From: Escherichia coli
Lineage (GTDB): Bacteria > Pseudomonadota > Gammaproteobacteria > Enterobacterales > Enterobacteriaceae
Length of the DNA: 64,000 bases
Assembly (NCBI RefSeq): GCF_011045215.1
Contig: NZ_CP049201.1
Direction: 5' to 3' (one strand)
How positions within the stretch are numbered: the first letter of the stretch is position 1; every line of letters begins with the position of its first letter. Under the pieces are notes generated by a model, which searched no databases, was not told the DNA's origin, and saw only the letters and a list, made by a program, of their open reading frames with translations. This document shows positions 59,764 through 64,000 of this stretch, piece by piece. A program made the position numbers and the translations under genes.

Positions 59764-60912
59764 ATGGGATGGAGCAGAACAAAATCATTATCAACAGAAT
59801 TACCTCATAAACCATCAATGATGTTGTGGTTTATGACAGGGGCATTTATGGCTGTTGTTGGTGCTCTGTTGTTTATTATCCGGGCATCAGGATATGTGAA
59901 AGCATTAAATAATTTCAGTATCTGGTGGCTTGCATTGACTCCTCCGGGGAGCTGGTTTTTCCTGTTTTGCCTGCGACACTGGCAGTGGAGCAACCAGATG
60001 GATGAACATTTGTTTCTTAAAAAAGAGGGGGAGTATGCTCAGAAACAGTGGGAATCCTGGGCCGAAAGGTATCTTGTTATTACTGCCAGTTGTGTTTATT
60101 TGCCTGATAAAATAACGGTAGCTACTCTTTGTGATGAATTGCCTCTGCAGTATGGCCTTGTAAAGAAAATAGATTATCTTTCTGACAGTGGGCATAAGGT
60201 TGAAGCCTCTTTACGTGTCTTGCTTAGGGAGATAACGGATAAATTTTGTCAGTTACCTGCCGCTCTCCCTGTAAATGTGACGCTGATAACCGATCAGCCT
60301 GATTCTGAAATCAGATCTGCTTTTGTTTCTGCATGGGAAGCGTTATTTCCCCAACGCGTCGTTCCTGACAATATTGAGGTTACTCCCGACTTTTCCATGG
60401 GGTGGGGTGATGAGCGTCTGAAACAACCAGTGCTGACTGTGGATTTGATACTGGTAATACAGCTTAATGGGGGAAATGCATACTCTGACGGACTGGCTGC
60501 ACTTTTGTTGACCAGCGATGATGTTGCGCAAAAATATAATCTGCCGCATTCAGCCCGTCTGCTACGCCCGATGTCGCTGGATATCAACAAGTTTAATGAT
60601 GAATTCACACTTTTCCTTGAAACCCAGACAGCTGCCTGTCGTACCGCTCGTGTACTGGGGGACTGTTATCACTGGGAAAAGATTGCTGCACCGCTGATGA
60701 CTATTGGAAACCAGTATGGTGCCGGATGGGAACCGTCCGGACGTATGTTACTGGAAAAATGGTGCGGTATCCCGGGACCTGCTGCTCCGTGGCTGCTTAC
60801 TGCTCTGGCAGCCGATCTGGTCTGTCTTGGTAATGATTCTCTCCTGACTTTATTCTCATCCGGAGAAGAACATTTTATCAGTACTGTTACATCAGGAAAC
60901 CAGAATGAATAA
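59764..60912 (+). CDS. Membrane protein of unknown function, T6SS-cluster-embedded
   Basis: 382 aa; two N-terminal TM helices; immediately precedes and overlaps tssM start. Confidence 0.55.
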   Translation: MGWSRTKSLSTELPHKPSMMLWFMTGAFMAVVGALLFIIRASGYVKALNNFSIWWLALTPPGSWFFLFCLRHWQWSNQMDEHLFLKKEGEYAQKQWESWAERYLVITASCVYLPDKITVATLCDELPLQYGLVKKIDYLSDSGHKVEASLRVLLREITDKFCQLPAALPVNVTLITDQPDSEIRSAFVSAWEALFPQRVVPDNIEVTPDFSMGWGDERLKQPVLTVDLILVIQLNGGNAYSDGLAALLLTSDDVAQKYNLPHSARLLRPMSLDINKFNDEFTLFLETQTAACRTARVLGDCYHWEKIAAPLMTIGNQYGAGWEPSGRMLLEKWCGIPGPAAPWLLTALAADLVCLGNDSLLTLFSSGEEHFISTVTSGNQNE

Positions 60913-63900
60913 ACTGGCCTGTCTGTCTGGTCGCTTTGGGCGACCGGGGATTGTATTTATTGGTGTGGCTGCGCTCTGGTGGCTGATAACCCGATATGGA
61001 GCATATCTGGGGGCAGAAACACGCCGGGATCAAATACTACTGCTGATATTGCTGAGTCTGGGGTTGCTCTTTGTCTGTTACCTGCCTGTGATGAAAAAAT
61101 ATGTTCAGGAACTGACATATCGACGCAGGGCCCGTAAGGAGCAAAGGTTACCTGACGATGAAGAGCGACTGGCTCAGACGCCACCGCGCTATGTTACTGT
61201 TCAGGATATTCGTCATACTCTGCGGCGCCAGTATGGCAGATTCTGGGGACGTAAGATACGCATTCTGTTGATAACAGGTACCGCCTCTGAGGTTGAGTTG
61301 TTGACCCCGGGCCTGACAGAACAGTTCTGGCAGGAAGAGCAGGGGACATTGCTTCTCTGGGGAGGAGACCCCTCGCAGCCGGAAAACGCAGACTGGCTGG
61401 CTGCGTTACGCCGTCTGCGTTACCGGCCTGCTGATGGCATTGTCTGGGTAACTTCCGGACTGAGTGAAACATTATCCGCACCACTTACAGAAGATGCCCT
61501 TGACAGGGTTTCCCGTGCAGTCAGTTCATGTTGTGAGCGCCTTGGCTGGCGTCTGCCGCTGTATGTCTGGTCACTGCAGGAGAGTCCGGATGAGCGTGGG
61601 CGTATTACTCAGCCCGTGGGATGCCTTCTGCCGGCAGAATGTCGTTCTGACAAACTGAAAGCACAACTACAGGCCATGCTCCCCGGGCTTGTTACTCAGG
61701 GGATACAGCAGATATGCAGTGCCCCTCGGTATTATTTTTTGTTGTCGCTGGCAGAGCGATTCAGACGAAATATTGATGCTGTGGTGGAGCCATTATCCGT
61801 ATTACTCCGTTCATACCGTCAGTTGTTGCTGGCGGGTATTGTTTTCAGTCCGGCAACTGTCGGTGGTGAACGAAGTGTCAGACATCGCTGGCGAATGGAT
61901 AACCGCTGGGAGGCGTTGCCGGAGACAGTGCAGCAATTACCTGTCCGGCTACAGCCTTCCCGCACAGGTCATAACTGGCGCAGAAGCCTGACTGTTATGG
62001 CGGTCATACTGATGATGGCTCAGGGAACAGGAATGGTGGTTTCCTTTCTGGCAAACCGGAGTCTGGTTGCTGAAGTACAGGAACAGATTCGTCCAGTTCA
62101 GAACCAGCAACAGTCTCTTACAGAACGTCTGCAGGCGTTGCTGAATCTGCAGAAATCCCTGGCCCGCCTTCAGTATCGTGAGGAGCACGAGGCGCCATGG
62201 TACCTGCGGGCCGGTATGAATCAGAATGCAGACCTGCTCGCGGTCGTAATGCCTCTTTATGCACAAAATGCACATCTTTTACTGCGTGATGCCGCTGCTG
62301 CTCATCTTGAGCAGCAGCTCAGAATATTTATTCGTCTTCCTCCGGACAGCCCGCAGCGGGGGAAAATGGCAAAAGCCGCCCGTGACCAGCTCAGACTGTA
62401 TCTGATGCTGGCGCAACCGCAACATATGGAGTCCGCCTGGTTCAGTCGTACGCTCATGCGGGAATGGCCACAGCGTGACGGTGTGAGTGCCGGTTTCTGG
62501 CAGGCTAACGGCCCGACGCTGCTGGCGTATTATGCCTCCGGGCTTATTACCCATCCTCAGTGGAAGCTGACAGTTGATGAAGAGCTGGTCAGCCAGAGCA
62601 GGACTCTGCTGCTTCGCCATATGGGAACACAGAACAGCGATGCCATGCTGTATCAGAAAATGCTGGCACGGGTGGCACATCAGTTTGCGGATATGCGTCT
62701 GACGGATATGACCGGTGATACTGATGTCTCCCGCCTCTTTTTCACCGATGAAGTGGTCCCCGGTATGTTTACCCGCCAGGCCTGGGAAGAGGCCGTATTG
62801 CCGGCCATAGATACCGTGATTAATGAGCGTCGTGAAGAAATGGACTGGGTACTGACTGATGGCAGGCAGAAGACACCGTCACCGGTATCGCCGGAAGCAC
62901 TCAGACAGCGCCTGAAAACGCGCTATTTTGCTGATTTTGGTAATGCCTGGCTGAATTTTCTGAACAGTCTGCAGTTACGCCGGGCTCAGACGCTGTCTGA
63001 TGTGACAGAGCAGCTGACGCTGATGGCTGATGTGCGCCAGTCCCCCCTGGTTGCACTGATGAATACGCTGGCGGTTCAGGGGCGTACTGGTCAGCCCCGG
63101 GAAGCAGTTACTGATTCACTGGTTAAATCTGCCAGAAACCTGCTTTCACAGGAAAAACAGCCGGTGACAGCACAGGAAAGCCGGCTTCACGGTCCTCTGG
63201 CGACGACTTTCGGGCCGGTGCTTGCACTGATGGATAATCAGAACAACAGCGCGGATATGCTGAATCTGCAGACGTATCTGATCCGGATTACACAGGTTCG
63301 TCTGCGTCTGCAACAGATTGCCGGCTCTTCTGACCCGCAGGCCATGATGCAGATGCTGGCACAGACAGTATTGCAGGGGAAATCGGTTGATTTAACTGAT
63401 ACCCGGGATTACGGCAGCCTGGCCGCTGCCGGACTCGGACAGGAGTGGTATGGCTTCGGACAGACGGTCTTTGTTCGCCCGATGGAGCAGGCGTGGCAGC
63501 AGGTTCTTACACCCGCGGCAGAAAGTCTGAATACCCGGTGGCGTACTGCGGTGGTGGATGGCTGGAATAATGCATTTTCCGGGCGTTATCCGTTTAAAAA
63601 TGTCAGCAGCGATGCTTCACTTCCCCTGCTGGCAAAATACCTGAATACGGACACGGGACGTATTGCCCGTTTTCTGCAGAATAACCTGAGTGGTGTGTTG
63701 CGCAGGGAAGGCAATCGCTGGGTACCGGATACCATTAATACCCGGGGGCTGACATTCAACCCTGCGTTTCTGAAAGCCATCAATACCCTGAGTGAAATAG
63801 CAGATGTGGCGTTCACCACAGGTAACGCGGGGCTGCATTTTGAGCTGCGACCGGGAACTGCTGCCGGTGTGATGCAGACGACGCTGATAACCGATAATCA

Positions 63901-64000
63901 GAAACTGATTTATGTTAATCAGATGCCGGTATGGAAGCGATTTACCTGGCCGGCTGATACGGAAGCACCTGGCGCCAGTTTAAGCTGGGTAAGCACTCAG
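60905..64000 (+). CDS. tssM: TssM (IcmF-like) T6SS membrane-complex protein, 5' partial (runs off right edge)
   Basis: Hand translation from ATG 60905 shows no stop to the window end (~1030 codons); two N-terminal TM helices, cytoplasmic domain, third TM near codon 360, then periplasmic domain; absent from ORF track. Confidence 0.85.
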   Translation, partial: MNKLACLSGRFGRPGIVFIGVAALWWLITRYGAYLGAETRRDQILLLILLSLGLLFVCYLPVMKKYVQELTYRRRARKEQRLPDDEERLAQTPPRYVTVQDIRHTLRRQYGRFWGRKIRILLITGTASEVELLTPGLTEQFWQEEQGTLLLWGGDPSQPENADWLAALRRLRYRPADGIVWVTSGLSETLSAPLTEDALDRVSRAVSSCCERLGWRLPLYVWSLQESPDERGRITQPVGCLLPAECRSDKLKAQLQAMLPGLVTQGIQQICSAPRYYFLLSLAERFRRNIDAVVEPLSVLLRSYRQLLLAGIVFSPATVGGERSVRHRWRMDNRWEALPETVQQLPVRLQPSRTGHNWRRSLTVMAVILMMAQGTGMVVSFLANRSLVAEVQEQIRPVQNQQQSLTERLQALLNLQKSLARLQYREEHEAPWYLRAGMNQNADLLAVVMPLYAQNAHLLLRDAAAAHLEQQLRIFIRLPPDSPQRGKMAKAARDQLRLYLMLAQPQHMESAWFSRTLMREWPQRDGVSAGFWQANGPTLLAYYASGLITHPQWKLTVDEELVSQSRTLLLRHMGTQNSDAMLYQKMLARVAHQFADMRLTDMTGDTDVSRLFFTDEVVPGMFTRQAWEEAVLPAIDTVINERREEMDWVLTDGRQKTPSPVSPEALRQRLKTRYFADFGNAWLNFLNSLQLRRAQTLSDVTEQLTLMADVRQSPLVALMNTLAVQGRTGQPREAVTDSLVKSARNLLSQEKQPVTAQESRLHGPLATTFGPVLALMDNQNNSADMLNLQTYLIRITQVRLRLQQIAGSSDPQAMMQMLAQTVLQGKSVDLTDTRDYGSLAAAGLGQEWYGFGQTVFVRPMEQAWQQVLTPAAESLNTRWRTAVVDGWNNAFSGRYPFKNVSSDASLPLLAKYLNTDTGRIARFLQNNLSGVLRREGNRWVPDTINTRGLTFNPAFLKAINTLSEIADVAFTTGNAGLHFELRPGTAAGVMQTTLITDNQKLIYVNQMPVWKRFTWPADTEAPGASLSWVSTQ

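Follow-up and report, generated by a model that had tools for sequence, protein, structure and literature searches.

The last 3.1 kb of a 64,000-nucleotide stretch of Escherichia coli DNA (assembly GCF_011045215.1, contig NZ_CP049201.1; here called the window) hold a long open frame, at positions 60905-64000 on the plus strand, that is missing from a mechanically produced list of open reading frames (ORFs). Is there a gene at this edge, which gene is it, and is it intact? We conclude that the encoded protein is TssM (IcmF family), the membrane-anchor subunit of a type VI secretion system (T6SS), and that the frame is almost certainly the 5' 91% of an intact tssM, expected to run to 1,129 codons and seen here as codons 1-1032, from a T6SS cluster of the Sci-1 type in E. 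coli. It is an ordinary, already known and structurally solved gene that has been clipped by the window edge, and the gene itself adds nothing new to biology.

Translation from the ATG at 60905 gives 1,032 stop-free codons, the final codon ending exactly at 64000. An earlier note on this DNA had reported an uninterrupted frame of about 1030 codons, had named a missed stop codon as what would refute it and had proposed six-frame translation as a check. The observation holds: the frame contains zero stops, and the other five frames across the same 3,096 bases contain 20-56 each. The alternative that the frame is open merely by chance, in GC-rich DNA and with no gene behind it, has nothing in its favor beyond the absence from ORF lists; the probability of 1,032 stop-free codons arising by chance, calculated from the base composition of the region, is about 4e-20, the other frames are interrupted, and the domain and structure matches described below are strong. 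We consider this alternative already refuted. The nearest preceding in-frame stop is the TGA at 60845-60847, and ATG 60905 is the sole ATG, GTG or TTG that follows it, hence the single possible start of tssM. An AGGAA resembling a Shine-Dalgarno sequence lies 8-12 nt 5' of this ATG, the equivalent start is used in the RefSeq annotation of four near-identical genomes, and the start shares 8 nt with the end of the ORF before it (59764-60912), an arrangement that fits translational coupling in an operon.

The reason why the frame was missed is simple. According to its documentation, the mechanical list omits ORFs that run off a source end, in agreement with the explanation that the earlier note had given. 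The tssM frame is absent from it because there is no stop codon inside the window, and there is none because the window falls 294 bp short of the expected stop. Three antisense ORFs within tssM (61194-61484, 61949-62275 and 62279-62680, all on the minus strand) were rejected as spurious; they are annotated in none of the four reference genomes.

The protein aligns without interruption to the TssM of the Sci-1 system of enteroaggregative E. coli (EAEC). Residues 1-1032 match residues 1-1032 of the 1,129-residue EAEC protein in the PDB entries 6HS7_A and 6IXH_P, with 2,254-2,257 bits, and the crystallized C-terminal fragments 4Y7L, 4Y7M and 4Y7O also align. Its domain content is that of the IcmF family: a periplasmic IcmF-related helical domain (PF06761, E = 8.5e-54; residues 409-725, positions 62129-63079) and an IcmF_helical domain (PF21070, E = 1.1e-45; residues 870-975, positions 63512-63829), the latter aligning with the 4Y7L, 4Y7M and 4Y7O constructs, are both matched over the full length of their profiles. 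The C-terminal, C2-like and TssJ-binding IcmF_C domain (PF06744; 63839-64000) is cut by the window end, so that only its first half is seen: residues 979-1029 match profile positions 1-52 of 106, whereas the full-length homolog of strain C5 matches 1-105. The cut falls at residue 1032, and the 97 residues that would follow make up about half of the TssJ-binding β-domain.

The topology also agrees. EAEC TssM is an inner-membrane protein with three transmembrane (TM) segments and a cytoplasmic domain between an N-terminal hairpin and the third helix (PMC6517824, PMC3213119). In the window protein, hydropathy analysis finds the same arrangement: an N-terminal hairpin at 60947-61090, its boundaries approximate (TM1, about residues 15-35, and TM2, about residues 44-62, under hydropathy peaks at about residues 11-35 and 40-65 with Kyte-Doolittle maxima of 1.52 and 2.78 in a 19-residue window); a cytoplasmic domain of about 300 residues (about 63-360; 61091-61984); and a third segment (about residues 361-383; 61985-62053) with a peak of 1.95. 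The TssM-like topology proposed in the earlier note is therefore borne out by its match to the published one.

IcmF-family domains are common to the T6SS and to type IVB secretion systems, which raises the alternative that the gene encodes the IcmF of a Dot/Icm-like type IVB system, or another IcmF-family membrane protein from outside the T6SS. A weak match to the IcmF_IVB profile NF038226 (E = 2.4e-09) points in this direction, as does the failure to reach the curated TssM equivalog cutoff, described below. The NF038226 match, however, amounts to 35.7 bits where the cutoff is 1,000; the gene lies inside a T6SS operon that also encodes TssB, TssC, TssK, TssL, Hcp, ClpV, VgrG and PAAR proteins; and its product shows 96.6% identity to EAEC TssM, whose structure was determined as part of the TssJLM complex. 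This alternative is effectively refuted, and we return to the identification as TssM.

Comparison with relatives leads to the same conclusion. The tssM DNA of the window is matched in 69 of 5,426 complete E. coli genomes, always on the chromosome, at 95-99.1% identity. At the amino acid level, the protein is 98.9% identical to TssM of C5, 98.6% to that of CFIAFB20180511, 97.9% to that of STEC308 and 96.6% to that of EAEC 042. In all four reference genomes tssM is 3,390 bp long, stops at codon 1130, overlaps the start of tssA with its stop and carries no pseudogene flag. The ratio of nonsynonymous to synonymous substitution rates (dN/dS) is 0.22-0.26 in all four comparisons; a value of about 0.25 implies that the gene is under purifying selection and functional. 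Over the final 300 nt of the window, the sequence is identical to C5 at 300 of 300 positions. The megablast match to tssM does not start until nt 398 or nt 957 in at least 13 genomes (region 60905-61861). These late-starting matches suggest alternative, more divergent alleles of the N-terminal and cytoplasmic part, with recombination breakpoints inside the gene.

Several observations weigh against reading the frame as an intact tssM of the EAEC kind. The TssM equivalog profile TIGR03348 gives the window protein 222.9 bits, under the curated cutoff of 388.15, and aligns to it from profile position 429 only (positions 429-1095). Truncation by the window was ruled out as the cause, since the full-length TssM of C5 fails too (254.9 bits, aligned only from position 431). 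The shortfall arises because the N-terminal cytoplasmic domain is unmatched by the profile, and these genes carry the RefSeq label "ImcF-related family protein" because the cutoff is missed. The Pfam family IcmF-related_N gave a non-significant trace only (E = 0.022). The low score does not overturn membership in TssM, the 96.6%-identical EAEC protein being a TssM established by experiment, with its structure solved in the TssJLM complex (PMC6517824).

A regular-expression search of residues 1-1032 also found no Walker A motif, neither [AG]xxxxGK[ST] nor a relaxed variant of it, and the stretch that corresponds to its position reads ILLITGTASEVELL. Walker A, or the P-loop, is a nucleoside triphosphate (NTP)-binding motif present in many TssM proteins, not in all. 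Its absence is a known property of the characterized EAEC TssM lineage and no novelty of the window. An ATPase-type TssM was rejected for this protein on the missing Walker A motif together with the trace-level IcmF-related_N match. An ATPase-dependent step has been demonstrated for the TssM of Agrobacterium (PMC3346141); with no Walker A, that ATPase-driven mechanism is not transferable to the window protein.

The remaining objections concern the integrity of the gene. The window ends before the final 97 codons and the stop of tssM, so 3' intactness cannot be shown. Moreover, at least 4 of the 69 tssM-bearing genomes (TOE17, AST46, H3 and 2018-166) retain only nt 1-124 to 1-495 of the gene; internal deletions have joined these remnants directly to genes downstream, so decay of the locus does occur. 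The window could accordingly hold a pseudogene or truncated allele, in which an insertion sequence (IS), a deletion or a frameshift interrupts the last 294 bp, or the downstream half of the cluster could be missing; in either case this strain would have a non-functional T6SS. Such a lesion would fit with the transposases (IS66, IS110 and IS4-type) in which the surrounding island is rich, with those eroded copies and with the decay of a 230-aa gene of C5 to a 117-bp remnant. However, none of the deletions in the relatives begins beyond nt 500, whereas the window tssM is intact through nt 3096 and only 294 bp of it lie past the edge. Its last 300 nt are identical to those of C5, whose tssM is complete; all four relatives inspected carry a 1,129-codon tssM with no pseudogene flag; and the dN/dS of about 0.25 argues for an intact gene. 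We judge a lesion to be very unlikely, and keep to the reading of an intact tssM cut by the window end.

What would this protein do? In EAEC, the periplasmic "ekto" domain of TssM spans residues 386-1129, of which 386-930 are helical, and its β-domain (931-1129) binds the outer-membrane lipoprotein TssJ (PMC3213119). TssJ, TssL and TssM assemble into a membrane complex of five-fold symmetry to which the contractile tail is anchored (PMC6517824); iron limitation induces the Sci-1 system (PMC6730261). An identity of 96.6% allows the mechanism to be transferred with confidence to the window protein, whose function we take from the published work on its EAEC counterpart. The protein would be anchored in the inner membrane by its N-terminal helical hairpin and third helix, with the cytoplasmic domain of about 300 residues between them. 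Its large periplasmic part, the helical region followed by the C-terminal β-domain, would reach TssJ at the outer membrane. Together with TssL, and with TagL as peptidoglycan anchor (a role taken from PMC3213119), it would build the five-fold-symmetric TssJLM complex, which is predicted to dock the baseplate and to let the Hcp/VgrG needle be fired through it.

The gene stands at the end of a cluster encoded on one strand, in the order tssB, tssC, tssK, tssL, tagL, hcp, tssH, vgrG, lipase, 258-aa ORF, PAAR, 382-aa ORF, tssM. The cluster opens with tssB (43633-44130; TIGR03358, 167 bits; start taken from the C5 homolog), tssC (44152-45696; TIGR03355, 662.6 bits) and tssK (45712-47049; TIGR03353, 405.1 bits), followed by a short-form, DotU-type tssL (47046-47699; NF038239, 272.4 bits, above cutoff; PF09850). 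At the TagL position lies a gene for an OmpA-domain, peptidoglycan-anchoring protein (47702-49432; PF00691), 97.9% identical to an OmpA family protein of C5. Next come hcp, or tssD (49438-49929; TIGR03344, PF05638), tssH, or clpV (50098-52785; TIGR03345, 1,096.8 bits, above cutoff), and vgrG, or tssI (53716-56238; TIGR01646/TIGR03361, Phage_GPD, DUF2345). A PAAR-domain spike-tip protein is encoded at 59494-59760 (PF05488, E = 2.2e-24).

Between the PAAR gene and tssM lies the 382-aa ORF (59764-60912), whose end overlaps the tssM start. It has no Pfam, NCBIfam or PDB match; its position is conserved in Sci-1-type clusters, and it was found upstream of tssM in 4 of 4 relatives inspected. Its RefSeq names are "type VI secretion protein", "hypothetical" and, in a single genome, "KPHS_23130 family T6SS system protein". 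Identity to its C5 copy ("type VI secretion protein") is only 77%, compared with 98.9% for the adjacent tssM, a difference that implies a recombination breakpoint at the tssM start.

The cluster is collinear with the Sci-1 locus of strain 042, at 96.4% identity for window positions 43000-52727 and 97.6% for 59504-64000. By gene order and near-identity to strain 042 it belongs to the EAEC Sci-1 type. The window holds 8 of the 13 T6SS core components, tssM being partial, and those not there are tssA, tssE, tssF, tssG and tssJ; tssL and seven other tss genes are encoded upstream of tssM. A tblastn search with the C5 TssA, TssF, TssG, TssJ and TssE proteins gave no match anywhere in the 64 kb, confirming the earlier claim that the cluster is incomplete here. 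A second T6SS, or copies of these five genes elsewhere in the window, was rejected on this result and on negative Pfam scans of the upstream ORFs.

The missing genes had been expected downstream. Synteny in the four relatives supports this, and the region itself, beyond 64000, is outside the window. In 4 of 4 relatives the order 3' of tssM is tssA, a 230-aa gene, tssF, tssG, tssJ and tssE, with tssJ lying 5.1 kb 3' of the tssM stop. By the offset from CFIAFB20180511, the tssM stop would fall at about 64292-64294 in extended window coordinates, followed by tssA at about 64294-65892, the 230-aa gene at about 65894-66586, tssF at about 66594-68357, tssG at about 68312-69412, tssJ at about 69393-69929 and tssE at about 69932-70393. 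The rest of the operon should thus lie in the 6.4 kb or so downstream of the window. Strain C5 has only a 117-bp remnant, flagged as a pseudogene (L001 24998-25114), of the 230-aa gene that separates tssA from tssF; the gene is intact in 042, STEC308 and CFIAFB20180511.

One segment of the cluster departs from strain 042. Window positions 52728-59503 have no counterpart in 042 except for the vgrG core, which is 77.6% identical at the nucleotide level. The tle1 and tli1 genes of 042 are absent from the window; in their place is a class-3 lipase module, and the C-terminal part of VgrG is divergent. One product of this module is 636 aa long and contains a class-3 lipase domain (56235-58145, plus strand; PF01764, E = 7.7e-21). 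It is a putative VgrG-linked phospholipase effector that is not Tle1-EAEC; its PDB matches are fungal class-3 lipases only, with no Tle1-related entries. The 258-aa ORF that follows (58129-58890, plus strand) is, by its position, a putative immunity protein. It has no significant family match, is annotated as hypothetical in CFIAFB20180511 (L002) and is 28% identical to the equivalent ORF of C5. The GC content is 35-37% at 56-60 kb of the window, and only six of the 5,426 complete genomes carry the cargo segment 52728-59503, at 99.5% identity. The absence of Tle1/Tli1 is cargo variation and does not exclude membership in the Sci-1 type. More tentatively, and with more doubt than belief, we suggest that a Sci-1-type machine has here swapped the characterized Tle1/Tli1 pair for an uncharacterized module (divergent VgrG C terminus, 636-aa lipase and 258-aa ORF), possibly a new effector/immunity pair. 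This rare swap is the only mildly unusual thing near tssM.

The 43 kb upstream of the cluster contain transposases of the IS66, IS110 and IS4 types, a chaperone-usher fimbrial operon (11714-17697, with an 858-aa usher at 13053-15629; PF00577), a block of glycosyltransferase, DUF4056 and phosphoadenosine phosphosulfate (PAPS) reductase genes, YfdX and ProQ. Family scans of the ORFs found no T6SS parts in these 43 kb, and no tRNA genes, possible markers of an island boundary, were found in the 64 kb. Window positions 20000-34500, with an IS66 transposase, the PAPS reductase, DUF4056 and a family-4 glycosyltransferase, match E. coli plasmids from C5 and Ceylon31 at 99.4% identity, and positions 35951-43600 match the C5 chromosome adjoining its T6SS. 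This makes the island upstream of the T6SS a mosaic, with plasmid-borne material as one of its components.

The practical lesson is that ORF callers which require a stop codon silently lose genes that cross a window edge, and the value of the present case is mainly one of annotation hygiene. Dropping a 3.1-kb core gene could make a T6SS cluster seem to lack its membrane complex; once the clipped tssM is recognized, the first two thirds of a standard antibacterial T6SS of the Sci-1 type can be seen in the window.

Overall, the window TssM is best compared with the Sci-1 TssM of EAEC 042 and 17-2 (SciS; WP_001037088.1; 6HS7, 6IXH and 4Y7L/M/O). The two are collinear without gaps over residues 1-1032 and share the start context, the position in the cluster after the PAAR gene and the 382-aa ORF, the three hydrophobic segments and the order of domains. 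Of the 35 amino acid substitutions between them, 26 fall within the helical periplasmic region (386-930), and their clusters differ in cargo, Tle1/Tli1 in 042 and the class-3 lipase module in the window. The TssM proteins of C5 (WP_073521208.1) and CFIAFB20180511 (WP_047628080.1) are closer still, differing from the window protein by 11-14 substitutions. In CFIAFB20180511, the whole of 48905-64000 is matched unbroken at 98.8% nucleotide identity, cargo module included, whereas C5 has a different vgrG, lipase, immunity and PAAR module whose proteins are only 28-77% identical to those of the window. With the canonical P-loop TssM, exemplified by TssM/ImpL-M of A. tumefaciens and by TIGR03348, the window protein shares the periplasmic IcmF-related, helical and C2-like domains, the three-TM architecture and the partnership with TssL (PMC3346141), but it differs in having neither a Walker A motif nor a detectable match to the N-terminal NTPase portion.

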